Source: Candidatus Doudnabacteria bacterium RIFCSPHIGHO2_01_FULL_46_14 (lineage in GTDB: Bacteria > Patescibacteriota > Doudnabacteria > UBA920 > 2-01-FULL-46-14). From it: DNA of 64,000 bases. The stretch's first letter is position 1. Every line of letters begins with the position of its first letter. The notes beneath the pieces were generated by a model. That model was not told the origin of the DNA. It made no database searches and saw only the letters and a list, made by a program, of their open reading frames with translations. Position numbers and translations under genes: made by a program. Shown piece by piece: positions 7,160 through 52,693 of the stretch. The DNA is taken from NCBI GenBank assembly GCA_001779925.1, contig MFEK01000014.1, positions 1,011-65,010 of the forward strand. Reading direction: 5' to 3'.

Positions 7160-7282
7160 GAGCTCAATTATCGTACAATAAATAGTAACTCCATTAGAAA
7201 TCTCTACTGAAATAATAAACTATATTACGTCTTTATGACAGCGCAGATTTCCAAATGGGGTTGAATAATAATCCAAGAAACC

Positions 7283-12723: not shown

Positions 12724-12806
12724 ACCGCGTTAGAAATTTTATTCAGCATATACTCAAAAATTTATGATTACATCAGCTATTAACCAAAAGGATTTCTAAC
12801 GGGGTG
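12721..12806 (+). repeat. MITE-like gene-junction element J1 (TIR ACCGCGTTAGAAAT / ATTTCTAACGGGGT)
   Basis: Left end TGAACCGCGTTAGAAAT supplies the stop of 11050..12723. Right end AAGGATTTCTAACGGGGTGAAAA supplies the SD and GTG start of 12804..13913. Confidence 0.8.
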
Positions 12807-16634: not shown

Positions 16635-16717
16635 ATCCCGTTAGAAATCTATTTTTCCACAATAATTGCAAATTTTTATGAACTCTGCTATTAACTATAA
16701 GGATTTCTAACTGGGTG
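16632..16717 (+). repeat. MITE-like gene-junction element J2
   Basis: TGAATCCCGTTAGAAAT ... AAGGATTTCTAACTGGGTGAAAA. The interior shares AAATTTTTATGA..CTATTAAC..AAGG with J1. Confidence 0.8.
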
Positions 16718-17878
16718 AAAATTTTATTTGTGGCTTACAAATTCGGCACAGAAAAAGAAATCGGGGAGCATCTCGGTACCTACCATTATTTTATTGAAAC
16801 CCTGCGGCGCATGGTTGCCCTGGGGCATGAGGTTTCTGTTGCTGCGCCGTGGTTGTCTTTTAGGCGACGCGGCAGCGAGGATGTTGATGGGGTAAAAGTT
16901 TTGCGTTACTATCCACCTCTGTTTAACAGGCCGAAATCCCTGCTCGTAAACTGGATATTGCGTTCTTGGTATATTATGGCGACCAGCAGACGAATCCTCG
17001 ACCTTGATCGTAAACAACAGTGGGACGCGATTTGCGTGTGGCAGGCGCGCGAGACCGGCTTTGCCGTGGCGAAAATTGCTTCAAAGCTGCGCGCCCCTTT
17101 TATTTTCCGCCAGATCACGGCCTGGCAATGGCATTTTGAACGGATGAAGCGAGACCGGAAATTTCAGGAAAAATTCGCCAAAGCCATTTATGCTTCTGCC
17201 AAACAAATTATTTTTGTAAGCCGCGCTGCCGCTGATGCGGAACGAGCCTTGGGCTTGCCGGAGGAAAAAATCCGTATTATGGCCGTGGCCATTGAAACCG
17301 ACCTATTCAAGCCTGGAAATCAAAGCAAAAACGGCAATACCATTTTATTTGTCGGCCGAATCAATTTTGCGGAAAAAGGCATTGGCTATTTGCTGGATGC
17401 CATGCCAGAAGTACTGCGCCGACTGCCGGCAGCAAAGCTGGTGATTGTCGGCGGTGGTGGAGAGTCGCAGCGTTTGCTTGCTCAAATAAAAACCCTTGGT
17501 ATTGAAAATTCCGTGCGGGTTGTCGGGGAAAAGCCATTCAACGAGCTTCCTCAGTATTTGAACGCCTCTGATGTGATGGTTGTACCCTCCATATGGCTGG
17601 AGGCTTTCGGCCAGGTTACGATCATCGCCATGGCTTGCGGTGTGCCTGTGGTGACCTCTGACATTGGCGGAAGCGTCGAGATAAACTTGGACGGGCAAAC
17701 AGGCTTTGTGGTTCCCCGGGCTGATTCACACGCGCTTGCCGAGGCGATCCTCAAGATTTTGCGCGATCCGCAGCTTGCCAAAACGCTCGGGCAGAATGCC
17801 CGCAAACGGGTCGAGGAACATTACAGTTACGAGGTTCTGGTTAATAAATTTTTGAAACTGATTGGCGAACTCAAGTGA
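16715..17878 (+). CDS. Glycosyltransferase family 4 (GTG start; no palindromic insert)
   Basis: EAFGQVTIIAMACGVPVVTSDIGGSVEINLDGQTGFVVP. Canonical GT4 loop, useful for comparison with the insert-bearing paralogs. Confidence 0.8.
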   Translation: MKILFVAYKFGTEKEIGEHLGTYHYFIETLRRMVALGHEVSVAAPWLSFRRRGSEDVDGVKVLRYYPPLFNRPKSLLVNWILRSWYIMATSRRILDLDRKQQWDAICVWQARETGFAVAKIASKLRAPFIFRQITAWQWHFERMKRDRKFQEKFAKAIYASAKQIIFVSRAAADAERALGLPEEKIRIMAVAIETDLFKPGNQSKNGNTILFVGRINFAEKGIGYLLDAMPEVLRRLPAAKLVIVGGGGESQRLLAQIKTLGIENSVRVVGEKPFNELPQYLNASDVMVVPSIWLEAFGQVTIIAMACGVPVVTSDIGGSVEINLDGQTGFVVPRADSHALAEAILKILRDPQLAKTLGQNARKRVEEHYSYEVLVNKFLKLIGELK

Positions 17879-17975
17879 ATCCCGTTAGAAATCAGAAGCA
17901 GAAAATTAGAGGTAAATTATGATTAATTATGAAATGGATTCAGAAGAAAAAAAGACCCGAATTTCTAACGGGGTG
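17876..17975 (+). repeat. MITE-like gene-junction element J3
   Basis: TGAATCCCGTTAGAAAT ... CCGAATTTCTAACGGGGTGAATAAA. Confidence 0.8.
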
Positions 17976-18689: not shown

Positions 18690-19702
18690 CGATTTGTTTT
18701 TTCGGCAATTACATTCCAGATTATCCGCGCATAGTAGTATTGAAAAAAGGATTTGCGGCCAATGGAGTGAAGGTTCTCGAATGCCACACCCGCAAAACCG
18801 GTGTTGCGAAATATATTGACCTCTGGCAGCAGCATCGTAAATTCAAAAATGATTATGATGTCCTGCTCGTCACCATGGGCGCTTATACTCTTGTGCCTTT
18901 CGCGCGCAGGCTGACCAAAAAAAAGCTCATCTTTGACGCGTTTGTGTCTCTGCAAATAACAGCCGATGATCGGGGTAAAGGCAGATTTATGGCAGATTTC
19001 TGGGATGCTTATGCCTGCCGGATCGCTGACCAGGTACTACTCGACACTAATGCGCAGATTGAATATTTTGTGGCGAGGTACAATCTGCCCCGCGTGAAAT
19101 TTACCCGCGTCCCTGCCTCCGCCGACCCAGATATCTTTTTCCCTACAAGCTACCAGCTACCCCCTACCCGCTCTTTTGTTGTCCACTGGCACGGCCACAT
19201 CGTCCCTTTTCACGGATTGGAAGCTGTGATTGAAGCCGCAAATAAATTAAAAGATCACAAAGATATCGAGTTTCGGATTACCACCAGGTTCAACAGTAAA
19301 TATCAAGCGATAAAAAAGCGCATACAAGAATTGAAATTAGAAAACGTCAATTTTTTCCCGGAAACATCTTACGCGGGATTGGCCAAAGCAATTAATGAAT
19401 CAGATGTTGTTCTGGGTGTGTTTGGCACCAAAAAAAAAGCCGAGGTGGTCATCCCTAACAAGATTTATGAAGCAGTGGCCTGCAAAAAACCAGTCATCAC
19501 CCGCGATTCGAAAGCGGTTAGAGAAGTGTTCGATGAAAACTCCATGAAACTGATTCGTCCTAACAACCCCGACGAATTAGCTACCGCGATTTTGGAATTG
19601 AAACAAAATGAAGCCAAACGAAACAGCCTTGCTGAAAACGCTAATGAAATTTATACAGCAAACTTGCTGCCTGGAGCGATAACCAAGCCTTTGCTAGAAT
19701 GA
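18686..19702 (+). CDS. Putative glycosyltransferase (GT-B-like), family uncertain
   Basis: 338 aa. C-terminal NKIYEAVACKKPVITRDSKAVREVF resembles a GT-B nucleotide-sugar binding region. No confident family match from sequence alone. Confidence 0.35.
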   Translation: MTICFFGNYIPDYPRIVVLKKGFAANGVKVLECHTRKTGVAKYIDLWQQHRKFKNDYDVLLVTMGAYTLVPFARRLTKKKLIFDAFVSLQITADDRGKGRFMADFWDAYACRIADQVLLDTNAQIEYFVARYNLPRVKFTRVPASADPDIFFPTSYQLPPTRSFVVHWHGHIVPFHGLEAVIEAANKLKDHKDIEFRITTRFNSKYQAIKKRIQELKLENVNFFPETSYAGLAKAINESDVVLGVFGTKKKAEVVIPNKIYEAVACKKPVITRDSKAVREVFDENSMKLIRPNNPDELATAILELKQNEAKRNSLAENANEIYTANLLPGAITKPLLE

Positions 19703-19735
19703 TTACGTAATTAATTACGTAATCAGTTACGTAAC
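19703..19735. promoter_or_regulatory. Three tandem TTACGTAA palindromic half-site repeats (candidate operator)
   Basis: TTACGTAA at 19703-19710, 19715-19722 and 19727-19734, immediately upstream of a small AbrB/MazE-like ORF. Confidence 0.4.
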
Positions 19736-33948: not shown

Positions 33949-35229
33949 ATGGATAACCAAGAGTTTAGACCCGGCATTGATCGGGTATTATATACTAAAG
34001 CGGTTTACGGGGAAGAAGAAATTGCCGCGGTTGCCAAGGCCCTTCGCGAGGGATGGCTTGGCAATGGGAAGTACACGGAAGAATTTGAGCAAAAGACCGC
34101 TGAGCTATATGGGAAGAAATACGGGCTGTTCGTCAACTCCGGCACTTCGGCCAACATGCTGGCCATGGAGATCGCCAAACTCCCCAAGGGCAGTGAAGTC
34201 ATTACCCAGGCCTGTACGTTTCCGGCAACTCTGTCTCCCATTGTTCAGCAGGGGTTCATCCCGGTGTTCGTTGATTCCAAGATCGGTTCCTATAACATTG
34301 ATTTAGATCAAATCGAGCCGGCAATTTCTGAAAATACGAAAGCCGTTTTTATTTCGCATGCCCTGGGTAACGTCAATCACATGCGCCGTTTGCGGGAGAT
34401 TTGCGATAAATATAAATTGCTGTTTATAGAGGATGCCTGCGACACGATCGGCTGTAAATTTGCTGGCCGGCCTACCGGCGAATATTCGGACATTACTACT
34501 GCGAGTTTCTATGCCGCGCACAATATCACCGCGGGCGGCGGCGGCGGCATGGTTATGGCGAGCGACCCGAAACTCATTTTAGAGGCGAGAATGCTTAACG
34601 ACTGGGGGAGAGCCATGCCTACCTCCGCGGACGAAAATCTGGGAGAGCGTTTTGCCGGCAAGCTGGCCGATACTGATTTTGACGCGAAATTTACTTTTAT
34701 CAAGCAAACCTACAATTTCAAAGCAGTGGAGATGCAAGCGGCATTCGGGCTGGAACAGCTGAAAAAATTGCCGCAGTTTAACGCCAGACGCGCCAGGAAT
34801 TTCCGGCGCCTTTATGATTTTTTTGATCAGCACCGAGAACATTTTTTGCTGCCGGAAATTTTGCCGCAAGCCGAAGTTTATCTGATTGCTTTTCCGGTGA
34901 CAATCAAACCGGAGTCTCCCATAAATCGCAAAGAGCTGATGCTGTTTCTCGAAGAAAACAAAATTCAAACCCGTCCTCTGTTTGCCGGCAATATCCTGCG
35001 GCATCCGGCATTCAAAAACATTACCAAGCGCGTTCACGGCCAAATGGTCAACTCTGACCTGGTTATGAAATATAGCTTCCTGATCGGGTGTCATCATGGC
35101 ATGACTGATAGCATGCTTGACTATATGCTGGGCATTTTCGAAAAGTTTTTGAAAATGATGGAAACCAGGAAAACGCAAAAGATTTTTGAACAAGTCGAGT
35201 TAATTGATTTAAGAGACGACATTCCGTGA
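33949..35229 (+). CDS. DegT/DnrJ/EryC1/StrS-family PLP-dependent sugar aminotransferase/dehydratase
   Basis: ALREGWLGNGKYTEEFEQKTAELYGKKYGLFVNSGTSANMLAM; FISHALGNV; GCHHGMTDSMLDYM. Confidence 0.8.
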   Translation: MDNQEFRPGIDRVLYTKAVYGEEEIAAVAKALREGWLGNGKYTEEFEQKTAELYGKKYGLFVNSGTSANMLAMEIAKLPKGSEVITQACTFPATLSPIVQQGFIPVFVDSKIGSYNIDLDQIEPAISENTKAVFISHALGNVNHMRRLREICDKYKLLFIEDACDTIGCKFAGRPTGEYSDITTASFYAAHNITAGGGGGMVMASDPKLILEARMLNDWGRAMPTSADENLGERFAGKLADTDFDAKFTFIKQTYNFKAVEMQAAFGLEQLKKLPQFNARRARNFRRLYDFFDQHREHFLLPEILPQAEVYLIAFPVTIKPESPINRKELMLFLEENKIQTRPLFAGNILRHPAFKNITKRVHGQMVNSDLVMKYSFLIGCHHGMTDSMLDYMLGIFEKFLKMMETRKTQKIFEQVELIDLRDDIP

Positions 35230-37046
35230 AGCTTTCCGATTATTTAGTTCAGTACCTTGTAGATTTGAATGTCAAGCACGTTTTTTTAGTTATTGGGGGA
35301 GCATGCGCGATTCTTGTTGACGCGATCGGTAAAAACAAGAATCTAAAATACGTTTGCACGCAGCACGAACAAAGCGCGGCCATGGCTGTGGATGCATATT
35401 CGCGCATGACGCAGAACTTCGGCGTGGCAGTCGTAACGTCCGGACCGGGAGCGACCAATCTCATTACCGGCATTTGCTGCGCTTATTTTGATTCGATCCC
35501 GTGTTTGTTTATTGGCGGCCAGGTGAACATTTGGGAAACAAAAGGGGACAAAAAGATCCGCCAGCTTGGTTTTCAGGAAACCGATATCATTGATATGGTT
35601 AAACCAATCACCAAATTTGCGGTTCTGGTCAAGGCGCCGGAAAAGATAAAATATTATTTGGAAAAGGCCGTGTATCTGGCTAAATCCGGCCGGCCGGGTC
35701 CTGTGTGGCTCGACATCCCCATGAATGTCCAGCAGGCTGAAATCGATCCCGACACTCTCGTGGGTTTTGATCCGTCTGAGCTTGGAGAAAAACCGGCAGA
35801 TGTGGCTCAGGAAACTATCTTTAAAATCTTAGCAGAGCTTAAAAAGGCCAAGCGGCCGGTGGTTATCGCCGGATCGGGGATCAAGCTTGGCAAAGCGCAA
35901 ATAGATTTTCTTGAATTTATTAAAAAATTCCGCGCTCCGGTTATTTCCACTTGGAGCGGCGTAGATATTTTACCCTATGATCACGAACTCTATATAGGGC
36001 AATTTGGAGTGTACGGAAATCGCGCGGCGAATTTCACCGTTCAAAACGCAGATCTTGTTCTCAGTCTCGGGTCGCGTCTTGATACCAGGCAGACAGGGGG
36101 GCAGCCAAAAACCTTTGCAAGAGCGGCCAAAAAGATTGTCGTGGATATTGACCGGGGCGAGCTGGAAAAAGACTGGGTAGTGGCGGACCTTCCCGTGTGC
36201 GCGAACGTTAAAGACGTGCTCACAAAACTCAATGATAGTCAGAATGAGACTTTGGAATTTCCAGATTGGCTTGTCAAAGCCAAAGAATGGAAGCAGCGCT
36301 ATCCGGCGGTTCTTCCCGAATTCTACGATCAGAAAGGCTCGGTCAATTCCTATGTTTTTGCCAAAACCTTATCAGAAAAACTCCAGCCGGGCGCGGTGGT
36401 GGTTGCGGACCAGGGGGGCAATCTGACCTGGACAATACAGGCTTTTCAGGTAAAAAACGGACAGCAGCTTTTTTCCGCGTTTGGCAACTCGCCCATGGGT
36501 TACGCTTTGCCCGCGGCCATTGGCGCGGCATTCGCGCGTCCGGGAGAGGCGATTATCTGCATTGACGGCGATTGCGGATTTCAGATGAACATTCAGGAAC
36601 TGCAGACAGTCAAATATTACAATCTGCCGATCAAAATATTTATTTTGAACAATCATTCATACGGCATTATCAAGCAGTTCCAGGAGATTTATTTTGAAGG
36701 ACGCTACACTGCAACTACGCCGGAGACTGGCTACAGCGTGCCGGATTTCATAAAGATCTCCGAGGCTTACGGCATTCCTACGATGACAATCTCTAATCAT
36801 CAGGAACTTTTGGGAAAACTTGACCAAATCCTGGAAGCTGAGGGACCGATTCTCTGCGACGTAATTCTTGACGAGAACCAGAAGCTTATTCCCAAGCTGG
36901 TCTCTGTAAGAAACACTGAAGGCCGCTACATCAGCAGGCCCATAGAAGATTTGTCTCCGCCCTTGTCGCGCGAAGAGCTCAAGGCCAACATGATCGTGAA
37001 AATGCTTGATGAAGAGAAAAGTGAAAAACCCACGGAGATAAACTAA
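35226..37046 (+). CDS. Thiamine-diphosphate enzyme, acetolactate-synthase-large-subunit-like (YerE-like branched-sugar synthase candidate)
   Basis: HEQSAAMAVDAYSRMTQNFGVAVVTSGPGATNLITGICCAYFDSIPCLFIGGQV (ThDP N-terminal domain). Central FAD-like domain. C-terminal GDCGFQMN...NN ThDP-binding motif. Confidence 0.75.
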   Translation: MKLSDYLVQYLVDLNVKHVFLVIGGACAILVDAIGKNKNLKYVCTQHEQSAAMAVDAYSRMTQNFGVAVVTSGPGATNLITGICCAYFDSIPCLFIGGQVNIWETKGDKKIRQLGFQETDIIDMVKPITKFAVLVKAPEKIKYYLEKAVYLAKSGRPGPVWLDIPMNVQQAEIDPDTLVGFDPSELGEKPADVAQETIFKILAELKKAKRPVVIAGSGIKLGKAQIDFLEFIKKFRAPVISTWSGVDILPYDHELYIGQFGVYGNRAANFTVQNADLVLSLGSRLDTRQTGGQPKTFARAAKKIVVDIDRGELEKDWVVADLPVCANVKDVLTKLNDSQNETLEFPDWLVKAKEWKQRYPAVLPEFYDQKGSVNSYVFAKTLSEKLQPGAVVVADQGGNLTWTIQAFQVKNGQQLFSAFGNSPMGYALPAAIGAAFARPGEAIICIDGDCGFQMNIQELQTVKYYNLPIKIFILNNHSYGIIKQFQEIYFEGRYTATTPETGYSVPDFIKISEAYGIPTMTISNHQELLGKLDQILEAEGPILCDVILDENQKLIPKLVSVRNTEGRYISRPIEDLSPPLSREELKANMIVKMLDEEKSEKPTEIN

Positions 37047-37050
37047 CATA

Positions 37051-37998
37051 ATGACCAATAAAAAAATTTCAGTAATAGTGATTTGTTATAATGACGGCGG
37101 CAGCGTGCAGGAAATGTACCGGCGCGTTACTGAAAGCATGCGTCAGATTACTGACAACTACGAGATCGTTTACGTCAATGACGCGAGTCCCGACAATGCT
37201 TATGAGCGCCTTAAGGTGCTTGCAGAAAAAGATAAGCGGCTCGTGGTTATAACGCATACCCGCAATTTCGGCGGTCAAAACGCTTATACCTCGGGACTCG
37301 AGTATTGCACGGGCGATGCGGCCATAACGCTTGACGGCGATATTCAGGACCCGCCGGAAATGTTTCCGAAGCTTGTAGAGAAATGGCTCGCTGGCTACGA
37401 AATCGTTTATGGCGACCGCGTGGAAAGAGAGGGGAGCATCATCCGTAGAATTTTTTATAAAATATTTTACAAAGTCTTCAGTGCCATGTCCGCAGTAAAA
37501 ATGCCGCTCAATGCCAGCGATTTTGCGCTCCTGGACCGTAAAGTGATCGATGCGCTAAAAAATATGCCCGAATCCGGCCGGTTTATCCGCGGTATGCGCG
37601 CCTGGACCGGGTTTAAAAGCATCGGCATTCCTTATAAGCGCTTGGCGCGGTTTTCCGGCCGCACCAACCTGACTTTTTTGGGCAACGTGCGCTGGGCCAG
37701 GCTCGCGATTTTTTCTTTTTCCGACCGCCCTTTGGAATGGATCTCGTATTTGGCGATGATCATGACATTTTTGGCCGCGTTAGGAATCGTTTTTTATATT
37801 ATATTTGCGATTTTCAATCCCGCCCCGTCCGGCTTTTTGACTATTCTCGTTTCCGTATTGTTTTTGGGAGCCATCCAGCTTTTATCCCTGAGCGCCATCG
37901 GCGAATACATTGCCCGAATTTTTGAAGAGGTCAAGAACCGCCCGAAATATATCCGCAGGGAGATACTAAATGATTACAAAGGAGAAATAAAAAAATGA
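37051..37998 (+). CDS. GT2 polyprenyl-phosphate glycosyltransferase (ArnC/GtrB-like), paralog of 32952..33920
   Basis: ISVIVICYNDGGSV; EIVYVNDASPDNA; ITLDGDIQDPPEMFPKLV; two C-terminal TM helices. Confidence 0.8.
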   Translation: MTNKKISVIVICYNDGGSVQEMYRRVTESMRQITDNYEIVYVNDASPDNAYERLKVLAEKDKRLVVITHTRNFGGQNAYTSGLEYCTGDAAITLDGDIQDPPEMFPKLVEKWLAGYEIVYGDRVEREGSIIRRIFYKIFYKVFSAMSAVKMPLNASDFALLDRKVIDALKNMPESGRFIRGMRAWTGFKSIGIPYKRLARFSGRTNLTFLGNVRWARLAIFSFSDRPLEWISYLAMIMTFLAALGIVFYIIFAIFNPAPSGFLTILVSVLFLGAIQLLSLSAIGEYIARIFEEVKNRPKYIRREILNDYKGEIKK

Positions 37999-39155
37999 AG
38001 CTCTCAAAGGCCGCGGAAAAACTCAAAGGCAGTCCCATGTTTCAGTTTTTGGCCAAAGCCCAAGAGCTGGAGCGACAGGGCCGGAAAATTTATCATTTTG
38101 AAATCGGCGATCCGGATTTTGATACGCCCGAGCATGTGAACCGCGCCGGCATAGAAGCCATAGAAAAAGGGGAGACGCACTATGTCAATTCCCTGGGCAT
38201 CCGCGAGCTGCGGGAGGCGATTTGCGAGGAAACCGAAAAAACTTTGGGCTTCAAACCCGACCTTGACCAGGTGGTGATCGCGCCGGCGATTTCTTTTATC
38301 TATTTTGTAACGCGCTGCGTGGCCGATCCCGGCGATGAGGTCATTGTGCCGGATCCGGGATTTTCTTCGTATTATTCCGCCTTCGACTTCATTGGCGTGA
38401 AATGGGTCAGCGTACCCCTGCGCGAGGAGAATGAGTTTCGTATGAATTCCAAGGATATTGAGGAGCGCATCACTCCAAAAACGAAACTCATCATTATTAA
38501 TTCGCCGCAAAATCCGACCGGCGCTGTCATGACGCGCGAAGAACTCGAAGAGGTTGGCAGGATCGCGGAGAAGCACGGCATTTATCTCTTAACAGACGAG
38601 ACCTACGGCAAGATGACTTATGAATATCCGCACTATTCGCCAGCCACACTTGATAAATGCCGCAAGCAGACCATTATTTTAAATAGTTTTTCTAAAACTT
38701 ACGCCATGACTGGCTGGCGCCTCGGTTGGGCCGTAGCGCCCAAAGAGTTGGTTATTAAGCTGGGACTCATGATCCAGACAATTATCTCTGCAGTGCCGCC
38801 GTTTATTCAGAAAGCCGGCATAGCCGCGCTCCGGGGGGACCAGTCGTTTATTACGAAAAGTTTAAAAGAATACCAAAGCCGCCGCGATGTCATGGTCAGG
38901 ATATTAAATGAAATGCCTGGCGTAAAATGCTTTAGCCCCAAAGGCGCATTTTACGTTTTTCCGAATATTACTGGCACTGGCATGACTAGCGAAGAGTTTA
39001 CCAATTTTGCCCTGGAAAAAGCCGGTGTAGTTTTGCTTCCCGGGACGACTTTCGGCCAGTACGGGGAAGGTTATGTGCGTCTTGTCTACGCCAATTCGCT
39101 CGCGAACATTGAAGAAGGGCTGACCAAGCTGAAACAGGCTCTATTGCAGAAATAG
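37995..39155 (+). CDS. Class I/II pyridoxal-phosphate-dependent aminotransferase (aspartate-aminotransferase-like)
   Basis: NSPQNPTGAVMTREEL; SFSKTYAMTGWRLGWAVAP (PLP-lysine region). Confidence 0.8.
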   Translation: MKLSKAAEKLKGSPMFQFLAKAQELERQGRKIYHFEIGDPDFDTPEHVNRAGIEAIEKGETHYVNSLGIRELREAICEETEKTLGFKPDLDQVVIAPAISFIYFVTRCVADPGDEVIVPDPGFSSYYSAFDFIGVKWVSVPLREENEFRMNSKDIEERITPKTKLIIINSPQNPTGAVMTREELEEVGRIAEKHGIYLLTDETYGKMTYEYPHYSPATLDKCRKQTIILNSFSKTYAMTGWRLGWAVAPKELVIKLGLMIQTIISAVPPFIQKAGIAALRGDQSFITKSLKEYQSRRDVMVRILNEMPGVKCFSPKGAFYVFPNITGTGMTSEEFTNFALEKAGVVLLPGTTFGQYGEGYVRLVYANSLANIEEGLTKLKQALLQK

Positions 39156-39909: not shown

Positions 39910-39996
39910 ATGAACCCCGTTAGAAATCTTAACTTCTTACGGCGGCGACAAATTAAATGATAAGCAAATAATTAAAATAGGATTTCTAACGGGGTG
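39910..39996 (+). repeat. MITE-like gene-junction element J4
   Basis: TATGAACCCCGTTAGAAAT ... ATAGGATTTCTAACGGGGTGAAAA. Here the element's TGA does not terminate an annotated gene. Confidence 0.8.
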
Positions 39997-40796: not shown

Positions 40797-41354
40797 CTAA
40801 AGGGATTCATTTAAATTTCGATCATTGAACTCGAGGTTATACCAGACCAAAATCGCTTCGAGGAAGCCATAGTGATGCCGGAGCAGATCATAAGGAAGTG
40901 TGTAGACTGAATGCCACCAGAAACTCGGCGGCGGCTCATCTACAAGTTCGCATGCCAGTACTATGCCGTTTTCCGGTCCTCGTTCTGTCATGTTAAATAT
41001 CGAGGCGACAGGTTCTGCCCGATAGCGCAGCCGGGCGCCCCCCAATTCCCGTTTAACTCGCCGGACAGCATCTTCGTAACTATGGTCAGTTGCGCGGAGC
41101 ATACTTCCTGGTGATGCTGACCTGCCCCGCCATTCTGGAATGTCCGTCTCGGGACGCTTGTGCAATAACACCTCGCTTTTTAGTCCTCCTGAAGGACCAG
41201 CTCTGAGAAATACTGTCTCAATCGCGGTTAGCGCAACATGCGGCGCGATTGCATTGTAGAACTGCCGCGACCACGGTTGCTTGATTTTACCGAGCAGTTC
41301 CACGAGCTGGTTTTCCTGTTCCAAAGTTAATCCAGCAGTCACTTCGACCGCCAT
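40797..41354 (-). CDS. Hypothetical protein, possibly NUDIX-like
   Basis: 185 aa. SPGSMLRATDHSYEDAVRRVKRELG loosely resembles a Nudix box. Visibly GC-richer than neighbours. Confidence 0.3.
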   Translation of the reverse strand: MAVEVTAGLTLEQENQLVELLGKIKQPWSRQFYNAIAPHVALTAIETVFLRAGPSGGLKSEVLLHKRPETDIPEWRGRSASPGSMLRATDHSYEDAVRRVKRELGGARLRYRAEPVASIFNMTERGPENGIVLACELVDEPPPSFWWHSVYTLPYDLLRHHYGFLEAILVWYNLEFNDRNLNESL

Positions 41355-42227: not shown

Positions 42228-42400
42228 TGAACCCCGTTAGAAATTCTGGGTGATTGTGACGGGGTCGCATGATTAACCCCGTTAGATATATCTGTAATAA
42301 GTCCTCTAATACTGATTAATAATATGATAATAAGACAGAAATTAACGATAATATTCCATATATATCTAAGCGGGGTTAACCATTTATTTCTAACGGGGTG
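42228..42400 (+). repeat. Composite junction element J5: outer MITE-like element carrying a nested variant copy
   Basis: Outer TIRs ACCCCGTTAGAAAT (42231-42244) and ATTTCTAACGGGGTG (42386-42400). Inner element TIRs TTAACCCCGTTAGATATAT (42270-42288) and ATATATCTAAGCGGGGTTAAC (42361-42381). Confidence 0.75.
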
Positions 42401-43198
42401 AAAATTACTATCCTTGGAGCAGGCACTGACGCCTCAAATTTGCCAGGAATCGAGAACCGATTTCCGCCGGGATATTTTGTGGAGCTAGGGACAGAAAATA
42501 TTTTATTTGAATGTTCCGAGGGCGTAAGATTCAGGCTGGAACAGATGGGGCAAGATTATACTGCTATCAAGCATCTTGCCATTTCTCATTCCCATCCCGA
42601 CCACTATGTTTTGGTCCCGTTTTATCAGTCCATTCATAATAATCTTAACTGGAGCGGCCGCTATGATGAGCCGCACTTGCTGAATATCTATGCGCCGAAA
42701 AATATAACCAGAGAGTTTTGGGATATGTGGCGCATGCATCACCCCAATTTTCCAGAGGGTCTAAAAACTCCGAAATTGAATTTTATAACCATGCCAAGCG
42801 AGTGTAGGGTCGGCGATGCGAAATTATCCGGTTTTTCAGTTTACCATGGCAAAGGCCTCGTGCCTGCTGTCGCTTATAGATTGGAGGCTGGCGGTAAAGT
42901 TTTTGCGTATTCCGGGGACAGTGGAATTTGTGATGGTGTTATCGAGGCGGCGAGAAATGCTGATGTGTTTATCTGTGAAACCTCGGCAGGGATTGATGAT
43001 GAAAAAAGCGGCACTGTCTATGGCCATCTCAATCCGCGGCAAGCAGGGGAGGTAGCCAAGAGCGCGGGAGCCAAGCAAATTGTCTTTGTACATTACACTG
43101 GTCTTGATTCAGACGAAGCTATGATTGAAGACTGTAAAGTTTCGGGCTTCACTGGCAAGGTTGTTGTCGGCAAAGATTTTCAAGTTTTTGAAATATAG
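42398..43198 (+). CDS. MBL-fold metallo-hydrolase
   Basis: HLAISHSHPDHY (HxHxDH zinc motif). GTG start from junction element (MKITILGAG). Confidence 0.7.
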   Translation: MKITILGAGTDASNLPGIENRFPPGYFVELGTENILFECSEGVRFRLEQMGQDYTAIKHLAISHSHPDHYVLVPFYQSIHNNLNWSGRYDEPHLLNIYAPKNITREFWDMWRMHHPNFPEGLKTPKLNFITMPSECRVGDAKLSGFSVYHGKGLVPAVAYRLEAGGKVFAYSGDSGICDGVIEAARNADVFICETSAGIDDEKSGTVYGHLNPRQAGEVAKSAGAKQIVFVHYTGLDSDEAMIEDCKVSGFTGKVVVGKDFQVFEI

Positions 43199-43237
43199 AA
43201 TCACGCGATAACTCCTCGCAGGTTGTTTAAATGTACG

Positions 43238-43267
43238 CTATGTTAGCGTACTAGTACGCTAACATAG
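43238..43267. repeat. 30-bp perfect palindrome
   Basis: CTATGTTAGCGTAC-TA-GTACGCTAACATAG, with an internal nested palindrome GTACGCTA-TGT-TAGCGTAC. Confidence 0.7.
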
Positions 43268-43304
43268 TCTATAGAATTAGCTTCGATCGGAAATCGGGAG
43301 TTTT

Positions 43305-43332
43305 CAACGGCTCAACCGCCGTTGAGCCGTTG
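43305..43332. repeat. 28-bp palindrome (12-bp arms)
   Basis: CAACGGCTCAAC-CGCC-GTTGAGCCGTTG. No U-tract follows. Confidence 0.7.
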
Positions 43333-43427
43333 GCCAGTCAGACTGCCCCATTGACATATAGAGTAATTTTGCAGTAAATTTAGCTGTCTATAACGGACAG
43401 CAATTTTCGTTTCTGTAGGAGGAAACA

Positions 43428-44060
43428 ATGGGGAGATATGCTCTTGTCTGGGTTCCGAACGGATTCGACCCGAATGGCAAAGGATTGCACACAGATGTGT
43501 TCGGGCGTGCGGGCCTCGAGCTTGCTAGTGTCCGCTACAGAGAATTGAAATCCCAAGGCCGCGAAGTCATCTGGGTGTTTCAAAAATCAGAACTACATTT
43601 TGTCGGTTCTGAGAGGCGGCTCTGGGAGACGGCATGGGACGAATCGCTTCAGGCAGGCATTGAACGAAGCGACATTCGTCTTGCTGAATCGGAAAAGCTC
43701 AACGGCGTAGGCCAAGTCAACGCGCTTACTGATGGCGTAGCGATTGCTGCGTTTTTCAAAAACAATCCCGTGTATTTCATTGAGATTTTCAACTGTCCTG
43801 CCGAGGTTAGTGGATATTTTGTGAAGACTTACAAAGCCAGCGGAAGGTTCATCGCAGGATACTGCGACTACCGTTTTACAATCGTGCCTACTACGACGGT
43901 GCGAGTAAACAAGAAATGGTTGAGAATTTATCAGTTGCTTGAGGTCGTCACAACCATCGCAGCCCTGACCAAACCAACGTATCTTCTGTGGTATTGGTTT
44001 CGCTGCTGGAAAGATAGAGGTCGCAGTCAAGGATTTGTGCGAACACTTGAGGAGGTCTAA
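43428..44060 (+). CDS. Hypothetical protein (210 aa), no recognisable family
   Basis: Strong SD TAGGAGGaaacaATG. Visibly higher G+C than flanking genes. Possible C-terminal hydrophobic segment (IAALTKPTYLLWYWF). Confidence 0.5.
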   Translation: MGRYALVWVPNGFDPNGKGLHTDVFGRAGLELASVRYRELKSQGREVIWVFQKSELHFVGSERRLWETAWDESLQAGIERSDIRLAESEKLNGVGQVNALTDGVAIAAFFKNNPVYFIEIFNCPAEVSGYFVKTYKASGRFIAGYCDYRFTIVPTTTVRVNKKWLRIYQLLEVVTTIAALTKPTYLLWYWFRCWKDRGRSQGFVRTLEEV

Positions 44061-44698
44061 TGAACGAAAAACTTCTGATTGATTTCATTCAGGGGCTAAA
44101 TCTGGACGAGCTGCAAAAAGAAGTCCGCGCGGCATTTCTGATTAAGGCCTGTGATTATCTCGGCGATTTGCAGTATGCGTCAGCCGAAGAATTTCCCGGC
44201 GTGTTTCGCGCTCGGTGCAAGGTTGGATTGGGGTTGAATGGCGCAACTGAGGCAGTCACTGTTTATCGGGAGGGTAGTATTTTTTACGCCCAGTTCGTTC
44301 AACGGCCAAAAGACGATCCAGAATTTCCTGGAGAGCCGTGGCACACTCCTGGTAAAGGCGTGGCCAAAGGAGTGACCACTGCCCAAAGACTGCGGCAGAT
44401 CGCGCTTCCGGATGAATCAGGACTTGTGGCAAGCGAGCCGGAATTCGCCGGCGCAGTGGAGTACATCGGACCCGAGCGCGGAGCTGGAAAGAAACTCCCG
44501 GGTCACTGGATTTCCCTGATCTGGGTCAGGCGCTTGGCTCATCGGCCTGCGGATGGAACGTATCCAGGAGAATTCCACCCAGTCGGCGCGCCTCCGAAGC
44601 CGTGCATCTGGAGCCATAGAATGGCCATATTGCCAGTGGCTGCGAATTACCTGGAGACAGGACGGCCGATATACAAATTCGTGCGGCACGAGGTGTGA
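44060..44698 (+). CDS. Hypothetical protein (212 aa), no recognisable family
   Basis: Translationally coupled to the upstream gene (GAGGAGGtctaATGA overlap). Gly/Pro-rich C-terminal half. Confidence 0.5.
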   Translation: MNEKLLIDFIQGLNLDELQKEVRAAFLIKACDYLGDLQYASAEEFPGVFRARCKVGLGLNGATEAVTVYREGSIFYAQFVQRPKDDPEFPGEPWHTPGKGVAKGVTTAQRLRQIALPDESGLVASEPEFAGAVEYIGPERGAGKKLPGHWISLIWVRRLAHRPADGTYPGEFHPVGAPPKPCIWSHRMAILPVAANYLETGRPIYKFVRHEV

Positions 44699-44793
44699 TC
44701 GCATGGGCGGCAGTGATTTAGGATTGAGGGATGATCCGAATCACTGCTGCTTTTTGTTTGGCTTGAAAAACACGGATTTTTTTTATATACTAC

Positions 44794-45870: not shown

Positions 45871-46381
45871 AACCAATCTTGAGGGGGTTTATGTCGTCGA
45901 GCTTGAGCCCAAGGAAGACGAGCGCGGATCTTTTACCAGGATCTTTTGTCAAAACGAACTCTCTGGACAGGGGATTTCATTCAACATTGCCCAGTCAAAC
46001 CTGTCTATCAATAAACACAAGGGCATTTTGCGCGGCCTGCATTTTCAAAAACCGCCAAAAGCCGAAGACCGGATCGTGCAGTGTTTGAAAGGCGCGATTT
46101 ATGATGTGGCTCTCGACCTGCGGCCAGATTCGCCGACATACGGAAAATCGTTTGCCGCAGAGCTTTCCGAGTCCAACCCGAAATCAATGTATATCCCGAA
46201 AGGCGTGGCGCACGGCTTTCAAACTCTTGCGGATGACAGCCGCGTTCTTTATTTTATGTCCGAATTTTATTCGCCAGAGCATTATTTCGGAGTTCGGTGG
46301 GATGATCCGGCCCTTGGCCTCGACTGGCCGATAAAAAATCCTATTCTTTCTTCCCAAGATCAAAACTGGCCATATATATGA
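45857..46381 (+). CDS. RmlC-like cupin: NDP-4-dehydro-6-deoxyhexose 3,5-epimerase family
   Basis: ATG at 45857 (MKLHKTNLEGVYVVE...DERGSFTRIF...GILRGLHFQKPP...QCLKGAIYDVALDLR..SPTYGK). The track start at 45710 overlaps the previous gene in another frame. Confidence 0.8.
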   Translation: MKLHKTNLEGVYVVELEPKEDERGSFTRIFCQNELSGQGISFNIAQSNLSINKHKGILRGLHFQKPPKAEDRIVQCLKGAIYDVALDLRPDSPTYGKSFAAELSESNPKSMYIPKGVAHGFQTLADDSRVLYFMSEFYSPEHYFGVRWDDPALGLDWPIKNPILSSQDQNWPYI

Positions 46382-46449
46382 ACCCCGTTAGAAATGTCTG
46401 TAAATTTCAGCGAGCGGTGCATAATTAATAATTAATTTCTAACGGGGTG
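46379..46449 (+). repeat. MITE-like gene-junction element J6 (shortest copy)
   Basis: TGAACCCCGTTAGAAAT-gtctgtaaatttcagcgagcggtgcataattaataatta-ATTTCTAACGGGGTGAAAA. Confidence 0.8.
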
Positions 46450-47331: not shown

Positions 47332-48549
47332 ATGAAAAAGCATAATAAAAATTCCATGCTCCGTGTGCCGTATGCGCTCTCCGTGCATGGCCGCGAAGAA
47401 TCTCAGGCTGTTAGCCGGGTTATCGATGAACACCGGACAGCTCTTGGCATAGAAACTCGGTCCTTTGAGAAAGACGTGGCCAGGCTTTTCGGAAAAAAAT
47501 ACGGCATCATGGTCAACTCCGGTTCTTCAGCGAACCTTTTGGCGTTCGAGCTTTTAAATCTGCCTCGCGGTTCAGAGGTGATTACTCCGATTCTTACTTT
47601 CAACACCACGGTCAGCCCGATACTCCAGAAAGGGCTGGTGCCTGTGTTTGTGGACGTCAAGCCGAAAACTTTTCTCGCTGATCTTGACCAGATCGAAAAG
47701 AAAATTACCAAAAAGACCAAGGTTCTGATGATTCCCTCACTGATCGGCAATGTTCCGGATCTGCCGAAGCTCCAGCGGCTCGCGCGCAAGCATAAGCTTT
47801 TTTTGATTGAAGATTCCTGCGACACGCTCGGTGCCACGTTTAAAGGAAAGCCGACAGGCAGGTTTTCTGATATATCGACAACCAGTTTTTATGGGTCGCA
47901 TGTCATAAACGCGGCGGGAGGCGGCGGGATGATTTGCGTAAATGATCCGCGATGGCGGGACCGTTTGCTCATGCTGCGTGGCTGGGGCCGAACCTCCGCG
48001 TTGTTTGCCGATTCGGAAAAATTTTCAGAGAGATTTAAAATGAAGCTTGTTGGCGTTCCTTATGACGGGAAATTTATTTTTTCCGAGGTCGGCTACAATT
48101 TTCTGCCGCTGGAGATCAGCGCGGCTTTCGGACGGGTGCAGCTCAGGAAACTGCCGAAATTTACCAAAATTCGCCAGGGAAATTTTGCCGGTTTGCTGAA
48201 ATATTTCCGCCGTTGGGAGAAATATTTTGAACTGCCGGTGCAGACTCCCGGGACTCGGACCAACTGGATCGCTTTTCCGCTCGTGATCCGGGCCGGCGCG
48301 CCTTTTTCCCGCATCGAGATTGTAAAATTTTTGGAAACGCGTAATATTCAAACCAGGCCGGTTTTTTCCGGGAACATTCTGCGCCAGCCAGCATATGTCA
48401 GGCTCGCGAAATCCAAGGGCCTCGCAAAATTTCCTGTTGCTGACAGGATCATGAGAAACGCGTTCGTGGTCGGTTGTCATCATGGGCTGACGGAGCGCCA
48501 TCTGCGGCGTCTCAAGCATGTATTTGACCAGTTTTTGAAAGCTTTATGA
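47332..48549 (+). CDS. DegT/DnrJ/EryC1/StrS-family PLP-dependent sugar aminotransferase (second copy)
   Basis: YGIMVNSGSSANLLAFE; LIEDSCDTLGATFKGKPTG; VGCHHGLTERHL. Stop TGA is part of J7. Confidence 0.8.
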   Translation: MKKHNKNSMLRVPYALSVHGREESQAVSRVIDEHRTALGIETRSFEKDVARLFGKKYGIMVNSGSSANLLAFELLNLPRGSEVITPILTFNTTVSPILQKGLVPVFVDVKPKTFLADLDQIEKKITKKTKVLMIPSLIGNVPDLPKLQRLARKHKLFLIEDSCDTLGATFKGKPTGRFSDISTTSFYGSHVINAAGGGGMICVNDPRWRDRLLMLRGWGRTSALFADSEKFSERFKMKLVGVPYDGKFIFSEVGYNFLPLEISAAFGRVQLRKLPKFTKIRQGNFAGLLKYFRRWEKYFELPVQTPGTRTNWIAFPLVIRAGAPFSRIEIVKFLETRNIQTRPVFSGNILRQPAYVRLAKSKGLAKFPVADRIMRNAFVVGCHHGLTERHLRRLKHVFDQFLKAL

Positions 48550-48633
48550 ACCCCGCGTTAGAAATTTCCGATTACAACGGTATAACTATAATTATGAAAA
48601 TAATATTAACTCAAAAGGATTTCTAACGGGGTG
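48547..48633 (+). repeat. MITE-like gene-junction element J7
   Basis: TGAACCCCGCGTTAGAAAT ... AAGGATTTCTAACGGGGTGAAAA. Confidence 0.8.
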
Positions 48634-50158: not shown

Positions 50159-50632
50159 ATGTCTAAACATAAGCGGCTGGAAAATCTGGCGCGGGAATTG
50201 ACCGGCATCGCGCGGCCAAAGCAGGATGTCCCCCAGCTGATTTTTGACGCTCTTACGACCTTTATGCCAATGGTCGCCGTGGAGATAGTGGTTGTAAACA
50301 GGAGGGGCGAGATGCTTCTAATTTGGAGAGAGGATCGATATTGGCACGGCTGGCATTTTCCAGGAGGGTTGCTGCGGTTTGGCGAGAGTTTTGAAGAACG
50401 CCTGCAAAAGACAGCCCAGCACGAGCTTGGGGTAAAGATCAAAAGCCATAGATTTTTAATGCCGAAAAACTATGGTCGGCATGAGCGCGGCCATGATGTT
50501 TCTCTGATTTATGTGTGCGAGTTGGCCGGTCCTCCCAAACACGGCAAATTTTTCAAAACCATGCCGCGTGAAATCATCACGGTTCATAAATCTCTGTGGC
50601 AGGAGGTTCGAAAAAATATTTCTAAAAAATAG
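50159..50632 (+). CDS. NUDIX hydrolase
   Basis: GWHFPGGLLRFGESFEERLQKTAQHELGV fits the Nudix box G.{5}E.{7}REuxEExGu. Confidence 0.65.
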   Translation: MSKHKRLENLARELTGIARPKQDVPQLIFDALTTFMPMVAVEIVVVNRRGEMLLIWREDRYWHGWHFPGGLLRFGESFEERLQKTAQHELGVKIKSHRFLMPKNYGRHERGHDVSLIYVCELAGPPKHGKFFKTMPREIITVHKSLWQEVRKNISKK

Positions 50633-52693
50633 ATGAAATATTTATTCGAAAAACTTGCCAGCATTAACCGATACGGACTGGTAATCCCAGGCATTGCCCT
50701 GGCTACAGTTGTTTATTATCAGTTCGCTTATTTTGTTTTCATCTATACTAACGCTCAAGCACATCGGATCGTGCCTGATTTTTTTGATTTTACGCAAATG
50801 GTGTTCCTACCGGAGCCATACGAGACTATCGGCTATTTTTTGGGCTTTTTGATTATCCCATTTCTGGGATTGCTTACTGCCTCCTTGTTTAATTTTTTGG
50901 TAGATAAAAACTATATTAGGCGCGAATTTGTGCAAAAATGGCCGATTGCCCTAGTAGTTTGCGCTTTGGCTTTTCTGTCGTACAAAATCGCGCTGCACCT
51001 ATTGTGGTTTGATGTATGGCATGAAACCGAACCGCCCGGAGACTTGAAACTGCAATTAATGCTGCTTTCTAGCATGGGCATCGGCCTGCTTCTCTACTGG
51101 CGAAGTTTTGATATCTCCCGACTCTTCGCCTGGGCAGAGAAACTGCCATGGGGGAAAATCCGTCCGATTTTATTTTTGTTTCTCGCCTTGCTTCTACTCT
51201 CGCCGAATTTCCCTTTTGATTACCATCACTACACTGACCAGATTGCTCCGGCCAATGATTTGCTCCACAGTAAGCAGTTTCTGAACCGCGATGGAACCTA
51301 CAGCCATTATGGTTTGCTGAATACATATTTTTGGTATGCTTTATTTAGCTTTGTTCCGATTTCTTATCAGGCAGCGTCTTTGGCGGTAATGCTCGCGGCA
51401 GTTGCTTGGTTTTTTGCCTGGTATTTTATTTTTCGTAACTGGCTGAAATCTGAAGCCATTGCCGCGCTCGCGACTCTGGTTATGATTGTTTTTTTCACTG
51501 TGCCCAAACTCGAGTTTGATTCGATTTATGGAGCGCCTTCCGCTACGCCGTTCCATCAGTTAGGGTTTTTGGTGGTGGCTTTGCTGTGGCTTAGATTTGC
51601 ACTGCAAAGTCAGAGTATCCGCACCGTGAATCTGATTTTAATGAGTACTGCTGTTGCCGCATTTTGGTACGTGGATACAGGTTTGTATGTGGTGGCTAGT
51701 ACGCTCGGCGTGTTTGCGTTTTGGAATTTTTTTTCTGATGGGCCGCTTGCACGCAGGATAAAAGATTTTTTGTGGATAGCAGTCAAACTAGTTTTAATGA
51801 TTTGCGGCCTGGTTGCTGCCTATTCTGTGTGGCAATTTTTTCGGTTCGGCGCGTGGCCAGATTGGCCACTTTTGTATTTTCCAGCGCTCGTTTATCAGAG
51901 CGGCTACATGATGGTGCCGCTGCCAAGCTATGGGTTTTATTTAGTTTTTATTTTTATCTTTTTAGTTTCCTTGGGTTATTTGCTTTGGAAAGCCTACAGG
52001 GAAAGCGAAAAGCTGCCAGAACTTGTCTTTCCTTTATTTTTGACACTGTTTGGGGTTTTGCAAATGCTTTATTACATCACCCGTTCGCATACCACCAACC
52101 TTGCCCCGCGCGTCTCGTTTTTTTTGGTGGCCATTATTGCTTGGTGGTGGACACTTCTAAAAAATGATCGTGAAACAAAGCGCAATATTTATGTGGCTTT
52201 TTCCAGCGTCCTAGCTGGTATACTCATCTTTGTGGCCCTTGCTGGCGCCTACAAATTTCGGAACGCTTTTTCCAGCCGCAATTATAACATAGCCGGCAAT
52301 TATAGGTCAGAATTTGTGGGTCGTGCGGATGTTTATGGCGGTAACGCAGATATTCTCGAGGATATCGCGATTCTAAAGAGCGACTACAATTCGATTGAGC
52401 GGCCCGCGGTTTTCCACTGGTGGGATTCAAAAATATTTATAGATTTAGAGAAGACCAATCATCTGCCGATTTTTTTGTTTCAATCAATCCTCTTAAAATC
52501 AGAGGTAGACCCGATAGTGGCAAAGATTCGAGAGGATAAGCCGCAGTATGTATTTATTGCCCGTAAAGATGTGCCCGCTGTATACGGTTTTGAAGTGTTT
52601 TTTGATAAATTGGATTATTTTTATGATGGCATCAAGGATCTATATATTGTTGATCGGCAGTTGAAAACTATGAATGTTTTGAAATTAAAATAA
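50633..52693 (+). CDS. Large polytopic membrane protein with C-terminal soluble domain (putative polysaccharide polymerase / GT-C-like)
   Basis: 686 aa, more than 12 hydrophobic helices, hydrophilic tail of about 160 aa. No confident family. Confidence 0.4.
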   Translation: MKYLFEKLASINRYGLVIPGIALATVVYYQFAYFVFIYTNAQAHRIVPDFFDFTQMVFLPEPYETIGYFLGFLIIPFLGLLTASLFNFLVDKNYIRREFVQKWPIALVVCALAFLSYKIALHLLWFDVWHETEPPGDLKLQLMLLSSMGIGLLLYWRSFDISRLFAWAEKLPWGKIRPILFLFLALLLLSPNFPFDYHHYTDQIAPANDLLHSKQFLNRDGTYSHYGLLNTYFWYALFSFVPISYQAASLAVMLAAVAWFFAWYFIFRNWLKSEAIAALATLVMIVFFTVPKLEFDSIYGAPSATPFHQLGFLVVALLWLRFALQSQSIRTVNLILMSTAVAAFWYVDTGLYVVASTLGVFAFWNFFSDGPLARRIKDFLWIAVKLVLMICGLVAAYSVWQFFRFGAWPDWPLLYFPALVYQSGYMMVPLPSYGFYLVFIFIFLVSLGYLLWKAYRESEKLPELVFPLFLTLFGVLQMLYYITRSHTTNLAPRVSFFLVAIIAWWWTLLKNDRETKRNIYVAFSSVLAGILIFVALAGAYKFRNAFSSRNYNIAGNYRSEFVGRADVYGGNADILEDIAILKSDYNSIERPAVFHWWDSKIFIDLEKTNHLPIFLFQSILLKSEVDPIVAKIREDKPQYVFIARKDVPAVYGFEVFFDKLDYFYDGIKDLYIVDRQLKTMNVLKLK

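Follow-up and report, generated by a model that had tools for sequence, protein, structure and literature searches.

Two adjoining genes, here called A and B (Table 1), lie in a 64-kb stretch of DNA from a Candidatus Doudnabacteria genome (the window), which has 57 genes and forms a long series of glycan and nucleotide-sugar genes. We consider it reasonably likely that A and B serve the surrounding cell-surface glycan pathway as accessory genes and that their products probably act on the nucleotide portion of a sugar intermediate. The two look like accessory sugar-pathway genes because their relatives sit in sugar-biosynthesis clusters; an earlier note on this DNA, made from the sequence alone, had named them candidate sugar-tailoring enzymes, a suggestion that the glycan context of nine loci outside the window supports. 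A literature search yielded no description of this gene pair, and the protein identical to B on record is a hypothetical protein from a Candidatus Doudnabacteria bacterium (RIFCSPHIGHO2 series).

Homologues and their gene neighbourhoods

Homologues were collected by exhaustive phmmer searches with A and B concatenated (E ≤ 1e-3), which yielded 44 proteins, each matching A or B over the full length. The alignments, with about 30 full-length members for A and about 12 for B, show that the two genes represent real, conserved, and rare families. A word-index search of 5.8 billion proteins matched A and B to themselves only, and the same kind of search with the A-family alignment returned four proteins. 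Locus retrieval with A-family sub-alignments gave one genome locus and five metagenome loci, and B-family sub-alignments gave none.

The neighbourhood sample comprised about 15 independent loci, many of them on short contigs. Nucleotide-sugar or glycan genes surrounded the homologues in L007, L008, L009, L013, L015, L016, L018, L019, and L026, and the same held for the majority of loci whose flanking DNA was long enough. The typical neighbours were RmlD/GalE-type epimerases, DegT/RfbH-type pyridoxal phosphate (PLP) enzymes, glycosyltransferases, flippases, and phosphatases, together with acetolactate-synthase-like thiamine diphosphate (ThDP) enzymes or split transketolase/E1 enzymes. In L025, a GT2-like gene was the only such neighbour, read by eye. 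The sole uninformative context was that of L010/L012/L014, where the gene downstream of A encodes a DUF5674 protein that is not Nudix-like (L010 3054-3452). Since the G+C content of the loci spanned 0.36-0.58 and one locus was labelled as a gammaproteobacterial metagenome-assembled genome (Gammaproteobacteria MAG), the glycan association extends across lineages.

Linkage of A to a Nudix-like gene was found in six loci. In four of them, the window, L018, L009, and L024, the two genes are immediate neighbours; in L019 a single gene separates them, and in L013 the distance is 3.5 kb. The metallo-β-lactamase (MBL)-fold gene upstream of A recurred with A in three loci (window 42398-43198, L019 3318-4127, and L008 2932-3030). 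The L019 protein was 60% identical to that of the window, with A and B far less conserved between the same two loci, and the gene after A in L008 starts with the N-terminal sequence of the window MBL protein. A B homologue (P0017) and a HAD-type phosphatase gene overlap by 4 nt in L026 (6312-7004 / 7001-7786), the HAD gene occupying the position that A has in the window; its assignment was made by reading the sequence and by alignment with other HAD proteins.

Protein B, a divergent Nudix-fold protein

Searched as single sequences against Pfam, NCBIfam, PADLOC, PHROGs, and PDB sequences, neither A nor B gave any match, and to this extent the earlier statement that both lack recognisable motifs holds; for B, it does not hold at the level of family profiles. 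The profile of the B family (27-42% identity) matched 22 Nudix chains in the PDB, the best being 2fml (E = 7.4e-8), and the Pfam NUDIX model (PF00293) was matched by 4 of the 12 members as well as by the family consensus (31.3 bits against a cut-off of 21.1). Judging from these matches, B is a divergent Nudix-fold protein with a predicted N-terminal helical extension.

The canonical Nudix box GX5EX7REUXEEXGU was missing from B under both strict and relaxed regular expressions. By alignment column, E7 is replaced by T or V, R15-E16 by I-A, and E19-E20 by D-E, so that REUxEE reads IALPDE, and there is extra length in the loop past the first Gly. Of the 14 cluster Nudix proteins examined, none has the box in either form. 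What B has in common with the Nudix superfamily and with cluster paralogues such as Gmm/NudD/WcaH is the fold-level profile signature, an N-terminal extension ahead of the first strand (shared with the cluster paralogues), a W-x-x-P-G element, and an acidic pair before the conserved Gly that ends the box helix. Like the Nudix paralogues of polysaccharide clusters, it also sits in a glycan cluster with a Pfam-positive Nudix gene. By its extension and fold, B is, on sequence comparison, grouped with the other Nudix paralogues of such clusters. It differs from the superfamily in the replacement of Glu7, Arg15, Glu16, and Glu19 of the box, and alone it stays under the Pfam and NCBIfam thresholds. 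Nor is B specifically close to GDP-mannose mannosyl hydrolase: it had no NCBIfam match, to that family (NF011963) or any other, and the structures 1rya/2i8t were marginal matches of the B profile (E = 0.25-0.3).

Since the B profile also detects the gene at 50159-50632 and, weakly, the one at 40797-41354 (n185), the window holds three Nudix-fold genes. The box KTAQHELG of the 157-aa paralogue at 50159-50632 resembles the GDP-mannose mannosyl hydrolase type, and its best named match was to that family, at a weak 33 bits against a cut-off of 146. The 686-aa open reading frame (ORF) directly after it (50633-52693), whose position is conserved in sister contigs, had zero NCBIfam matches and has no Pfam match on record. 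Taken alone, n185 had no family match. A 381-aa protein of L016 (P0004, 8001-9146) is a fusion of an n185-like N-terminal half and a B-like domain; n185 is 35% identical to its residues 9-164, and B aligns to its residues 189-379 with about 36% identity. This fusion ties the n185 gene of the window to B.

Protein A, a member of a rare family

The relatives of A are 197-219 aa long and share 24-36% identity. Their motifs are an N-terminal (A/P)NGFDP closing the first hydrophobic stretch, with Asp23 invariant, a central (E)TTGSPTDG / xNAxTDG, a YF..Y.AVA, and a C-terminal aromatic-rich segment ending in RR..GF.RTV. Neither 31 members of the family nor two consensus sequences gave a match in Pfam or NCBIfam, and two different family profiles gave none among PDB sequences. 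From these comparisons, the family of A, whose members have ~200 aa, is best described as rare and uncharacterised. To call the system undescribed, as had been done, is fair for A, for which there was nothing in any family library tried. The C-terminal segment of A may be an amphipathic, aromatic-rich surface helix; a transmembrane helix was rejected because charged residues break it in most members.

Resemblance of motifs or gene position suggested several known folds for A. Three were rejected by hhalign, whose probability was 0.5% for DJ-1/PfpI, 0.1% for HAD, and 0.5% for histidine phosphatase, and for HIGH-type nucleotidyltransferases and SLOG/LOG-like folds there was a resemblance of motifs, with no family or PDB match. 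The DUF218 envelope-biogenesis proteins (YdcF/SanA/ElyC) are like A in size and in the apparent alternation of hydrophobic strands and helices, and a 'GV..e.I..e' segment of all three E. coli proteins aligns to A columns 66-85. The assignment found no support: with single-sequence templates, which have little power, hhalign gave 0.6% for YdcF, 31% for SanA (over 19 columns), and 0.4% for ElyC, and HMMER gave no match of A to PF02698 or the YdcF structure.

A and B also follow the order of NadM-Nudix proteins, in which an α/β nucleotide-binding domain precedes a Nudix domain, here as a ~200-aa protein followed by a Nudix protein. The Nudix gene beside A in L009 weakly matches the Nudix half of NadM-Nudix in NCBIfam, and the N-terminal GFDP of A may, as a lead, be likened to the G-x-F-(D/Q)-P with which HIGH-type nucleotidyltransferases begin. 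In contrast to these enzymes, A has no H-x-G-H motif, and it gave no nucleotidyltransferase family or structure match with profiles at E ≤ 10.

Pathway genes of the window

The pathway genes of the window encode two RfbH-like PLP dehydrase paralogues (the second at 47332-48549), an acetolactate-synthase-like ThDP enzyme, a PgfS/ArnC-like GT2, a class I-II aminotransferase, a nucleoside triphosphate (NTP) transferase, RmlC-like and RmlD-like proteins, and several SDRs. A block with the RfbH-like, acetolactate-synthase (ALS)-like ThDP, PgfS-ArnC-like GT2, and class I-II aminotransferase genes is shared between window 33949-39155 and L026 5033-12016. ThDP-dependent acyl branching of sugars has been described (PMC9306805). 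The shared block may produce a ThDP-branched dideoxy or amino sugar delivered via a polyprenyl-phosphate carrier, and if the pathway is analogous to that of YerE and yersiniose, its product would be a 3,6-dideoxy sugar, possibly C-branched.

The protein upstream of A belongs to the MBL fold (PF12706, 63.9 bits against 27). Its alignment with the Apyc1/cyclic-nucleotide phosphodiesterase family (NF041851) was full-length, with a score of 89.3 bits that falls far short of the cut-off of 400.

Organization of the gene pair

Both ORFs given in the earlier note were present, each with the textbook Shine-Dalgarno (SD) sequence that it had named, and the remark that these sites set the pair apart from most surrounding genes was confirmed, GGAGG occurring upstream of only 5 of the 57 window genes. 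Four of these five are clustered, at 39201, 40797-41354 (minus strand), 43428, and 44060. The translational coupling that had been claimed is compatible with the overlapping junction of A and B; the overlap is not a 4-nt ATGA but a 1-nt TAATG, in which the last A of the TAA of gene A is the A of the ATG of gene B. With its own upstream signals and a strong terminator right after B, the pair makes up a discrete two-gene transcription unit. As predicted from these signals, A-B is a self-contained operon with a promoter-like site, SD-led coupled translation, and an intrinsic terminator.

Table 1. Features of the window around genes A and B, and loci carrying homologues (L numbers)
Feature	Position	Strand	Description
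Gene A	43428..44060	+	210 aa; SD TAGGAGG at 43416-43422
Gene B	44060..44698	+	212 aa; SD GAGGAGG at 44047-44053
Intrinsic terminator after gene B	44708-44759	+	Long hairpin, -28.8 kcal/mol, z = -4.7, then UUUUUGUUU
Perfect palindrome	43238..43267	.	30 bp, 15-nt arms, zero spacer; 40 nt past MBL stop codon
Second hairpin	43305..43332	+	28-bp element, G+C-rich 12-13 bp stem, 4-nt loop, without trailing U-tract
Sigma-70-like promoter match	43351..43380	+	TTGACA-N18-TAAATT, 10/12 consensus positions
Third hairpin with U-rich tail	43383..43411	+	7-bp stem, then AAUUUUCGUUUCUG; -10.4 kcal/mol, z = -3.6
Upstream MBL-fold hydrolase	42398..43198	+	RNase Z / Apyc1-like phosphodiesterase family; scores far under the equivalog cut-offs
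Junction element upstream of MBL gene	42230..42400	.	Inverted 15-nt arms AACCCCGTTAGAAAT ... ATTTCTAACGGGGTG
Third, very divergent Nudix-like gene (n185)	40797..41354	-	185 aa, GGAGG SD; B-profile E = 2e-6
Nudix paralogue	50159..50632	+	157 aa; passes Pfam NUDIX; B-profile E = 4e-21
L007 (B homologue)			GT1, DegT, Nudix, split transketolase, RmlD-like
L015, L016 (B homologues)			Flippase, GT2, cupin, ThDP enzyme, DJ-1, HAD, RmlD-like, Nudix, DegT
L026 (B homologue)			Class I-II aminotransferase, HAD overlapping B start, GT2, ThDP enzyme, RfbH/DegT-like, SDR, PMT_2
L018 (A homologue)			NTP transferase, dehydratase, E1/transketolase pair, His-phosphatase (His_Phos_1), A, B-like; ThDP enzyme farther on
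L019 (A homologue)			RmlD-like, A, HAD, B-like, MBL gene
L009 (A homologue)			O-antigen ligase-like (Wzy_C), initiating transferase, GT1, two epimerases, A, Nudix
L013 (A homologue)			PMT_2, GT1, A, DegT, Nudix-like, epimerase, B-like
L024 (A homologue)			A, then B-like
L008 (A homologue)			RmlD-like, A, then MBL N-terminus

The 229-nt spacer between the MBL gene and A, folded as a whole as RNA, reached z = -6.2. The perfect 30-bp palindrome reported earlier was found at its place, as was the repeat nested in it, whose alternating units GTACGCTA/TAGCGTAC start at 43233, 43244, and 43254. It is the longest perfect palindrome of the window, with a chance expectation of about 6e-5 per 64 kb (estimated from 4^-15 per position), and as an RNA hairpin it folds with -19.9 kcal/mol (z = -5.3). 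The second element, which had been taken for a 28-bp palindrome, turned out to be a stem with a loop and not a perfect palindrome (-21.2 kcal/mol, z = -6.3). A promoter-like site exists where the earlier note had read TTGACA-N17-GTAAAT and is given in Table 1 as found here. Nine matches of this quality were observed in the window against 4.6 expected, and since they are so common, the site is weak evidence.

The third hairpin may be either terminator-like, acting on read-through from the MBL gene, or the 5′-terminal stem-loop of the A-B transcript. Taken together, the hairpins of the spacer could serve as an RNA terminator or stabiliser, or as a protein-binding site parting two transcription units. 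A search of the intergenic region against Rfam gave a chance match to a miRNA model only (20 bits against a threshold of 80). Elsewhere in the window, perfect or near-perfect palindromes built on ATTACGTAAT occur at 13810-13839 and 19700-19734; their sequence is unrelated to that at 43238-43267.

Most of the 57 window genes are without an SD sequence, and in many of them a TATAAT-like hexamer precedes the ATG by only about 7-14 nt. This arrangement suggests short-leader or leaderless mRNAs in the window.

Proposed function

In the mechanism that we favour, B would bind the nucleoside-diphosphate (NDP) handle of a sugar-nucleotide intermediate, and it would probably work with n185 as a two-Nudix unit. 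The intermediate would come from the RfbH-like dehydrases and the acetolactate-synthase-like ThDP enzyme and would be a 3,6-dideoxy, possibly C-branched hexose. Two courses are conceivable from here. B might cleave the intermediate to sugar-phosphate, or to sugar and nucleotide, with an MBL, HAD, or His-phosphatase protein completing the job. Alternatively, its reaction might be of the non-hydrolytic Nudix kind exemplified by GDP-mannose mannosyl hydrolase and EvaA-type dehydratases. In the same or the next step, A would serve as partner enzyme or adaptor. Processing of the nucleotide or phosphate handle is suggested by the recurring MBL, HAD, and His-phosphatase partners.

A number of observations weigh against this assignment. 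No relative of A with a known function or fold was detected, and AlphaFold2 models from the single sequences of A and B were unusable (pLDDT, the predicted local distance difference test score, 35 and 38). With the box residues Glu7, Arg15, Glu16, and Glu19 replaced, B may be a non-catalytic ligand binder and not an enzyme, and the best PDB matches of its profile include NrtR/AraR-type regulators. B homologues occurred without A in L007, L015, L016, and L026, and A occurred without a detected Nudix gene in L010/L012/L014 and L025; thus, the pairing is frequent and not obligatory. The product of the pathway was deduced from family names that score below equivalog cut-offs, and the sample of gene contexts was small. 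Finally, the A-B locus was present on ten contigs, and the six other contigs that were fetched were 100% identical to the window over 3.5 kb and carried no polymorphism or presence/absence signal.

A more far-reaching version of the proposal, which we regard as rather doubtful, would have A as a new enzyme family, possibly with a new fold, acting with a catalytically rewired two-Nudix unit (n185 and B) and the MBL-fold phosphodiesterase. Jointly they would carry out a so far undescribed step by which an unusual surface sugar, possibly a C-branched dideoxy one, is made or recycled, and the set would have been scattered by gene transfer across the candidate phyla radiation and other bacteria. 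If true, one candidate for this step would be the removal or exchange of the nucleotide handle of the intermediate.

The analysis assigns two apparent orphan genes to conserved families that are small and whose biological setting is clear, and it removes the reading as cargo or defence genes. It brings out a rare family (A) without a model in any library tried, which is genetically tied to Nudix-like proteins. The presence of two or three Nudix paralogues per cluster, none with a canonical box, suggests that sugar-nucleotide chemistry of Nudix proteins extends beyond housecleaning, and the gene fusion and the recurring MBL, HAD, and His-phosphatase partners lead to concrete hypotheses, open to testing, on how little-known bacteria build their glycans. 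The value lies chiefly with specialists in unusual-sugar biosynthesis and the Nudix superfamily.

Alternative explanations

The degenerate Nudix box of B would also suit a non-catalytic, Nudix-like sensor of a nucleotide or sugar-nucleotide, like the Nudix domains of NrtR or AraR, that regulates the cluster together with A, the palindrome being the operator. We give this explanation a small chance. Several of the best PDB matches are Nudix-related regulators, namely 5bs6, deposited as AraR, and the NrtR-type 2fml and 3gz5/3gz8. The perfect 30-bp palindrome, whose half-site units are spaced by about 10-11 bp, is found a short way upstream of the promoter-like site. However, NrtR/AraR regulators consist of a Nudix-like domain and a C-terminal winged helix, whereas the Nudix match of B reaches about residue 185-200 of 212, so that the protein ends some 10-25 residues past the domain and has no winged-helix or other DNA-binding domain. 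The sole helix-turn-helix-like signal was an insignificant 12-bit Sigma70_r4_2 match of the B consensus, and A has no DNA-binding signature either. The N-terminal extension is common to Pfam-positive cluster Nudix proteins, and it is there that the 157-aa Nudix protein of the window aligns to GDP-mannose mannosyl hydrolase. The palindrome, moreover, lies upstream of the -35 element and not over the promoter, and it folds equally well as an RNA hairpin.

Equally slight is the probability that we attach to a sub-case of the favoured accessory role, in which n185 and B would be the two parts of a split EvaA-like NDP-hexose dehydratase, or of another non-hydrolytic sugar-tailoring enzyme related to it, with A as an accessory subunit. 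EvaA itself is about 470 aa long, larger than the 381-aa P0004. In EvaA-type 2,3-dehydratases, which act non-hydrolytically on NDP-deoxysugar intermediates, two Nudix domains stand in tandem, and of their two pockets one is active and the other a remnant (PMC8987622). The fusion protein P0004 likewise joins two Nudix domains, n185-like and B-like, in one unit, and the RfbH-like, RmlC-like, and RmlD-like genes of the clusters point to the production of deoxy sugars. Against this, similarity in sequence to EvaA went undetected: the Pfam hexose-dehydratase model was matched by none of the B-family members, and no EvaA chain appeared in PDB searches with the B profile or P0004 at E ≤ 10. Moreover, the two domains stand in tandem in one chain in EvaA, whereas n185 and B are separate genes in the window, 2.7 kb apart and on opposite strands.

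The pair, possibly with the Apyc1-like MBL gene, might also be unrelated cargo that landed in a recombinogenic locus (toxin/immunity, defence, or nucleotide signalling); the first two had been entertained for the pair in the earlier note. Nudix domains are known in nucleotide-based conflict systems as well, the MBL protein has Anti-Pycsar_Apyc1 matches recorded in Pfam besides its weak full-length phosphodiesterase match (89 against 400 bits), the pair forms an autonomous transcription unit whose SD use is atypical, as is, mildly, the codon usage of A, and junction repeats partition the cluster. This idea is very improbable, given that PADLOC (E ≤ 1) had zero matches for A, B, the MBL protein, and two neighbours, PHROGs had no meaningful match for A or B, tblastn of A and B found nothing in 50,697 phage and 72,556 plasmid records, no mobile-element gene was seen adjoining the pair, the homologues sit in glycan clusters of unrelated lineages with no integrase, transposase, or defence gene seen near them, there is no cyclase or effector partner, and the base composition is ordinary at third codon positions (GC3).

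Junction elements

Seven intergenic junction elements, at 12723-12806, 16634-16717, 17878-17975, 39913-39996, 42230-42400, 46381-46449, and 48551-48633, divide the cluster into cassettes; they are probably the J elements of the earlier note. The 5′ arm, AAC(C/G)CCGTTAGAAAT, starts right behind the upstream stop codon and is followed by an AT-rich spacer of about 40-150 nt. The 3′ arm, ATTTCTAACGGGGTG, supplies with its GTG the start codon of the gene that follows, and the protein encoded by this gene begins with MKI, MKK, or MKT. Matches to the arms numbered 18 in the window against 1.6 expected by chance. In the RNA, the arms could pair and thereby bury the start codon.

Base composition and codon usage

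Gene A had a G+C content of 0.493 (z = 0.65 among the 57 window genes) and gene B one of 0.551 (z = 2.7), the highest of all. GC3 was ordinary, with z = 0.2 for A and 1.0 for B. The excess of B was confined to codon positions 1 and 2 and results from a protein rich in Gly, Ala, Pro, and Arg (Pro 8.5% versus 4.3%). The earlier impression that both genes are richer in G+C than their neighbours is therefore right for B and not for A, and its argument from composition to horizontal acquisition is not supported, given the ordinary GC3 of the two genes. Of the findings that the earlier note had named as speaking against its reading as an acquired, undescribed system, most were obtained: a composition that is ordinary by GC3, homologues in glycan clusters, and an assignable fold for B; the fold of A was not assignable.

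Synonymous codon usage, calculated on short genes with no length correction, gave z = -1.8 for A, -0.5 for B, and -2.8 for the gene at 40797-41354, the most atypical value in the window. A weak hint of transfer is left in the clustering of the GGAGG sites and in the slightly unusual codon usage of A and of the 40797-41354 gene; a recent transfer of A-B is not supported by any convincing compositional sign. At the start of the window, the 1272-aa ORF at 15-3833 had a G+C content of 0.540, with 0.52 at position 2, and an atypical codon usage (z = -2.25).

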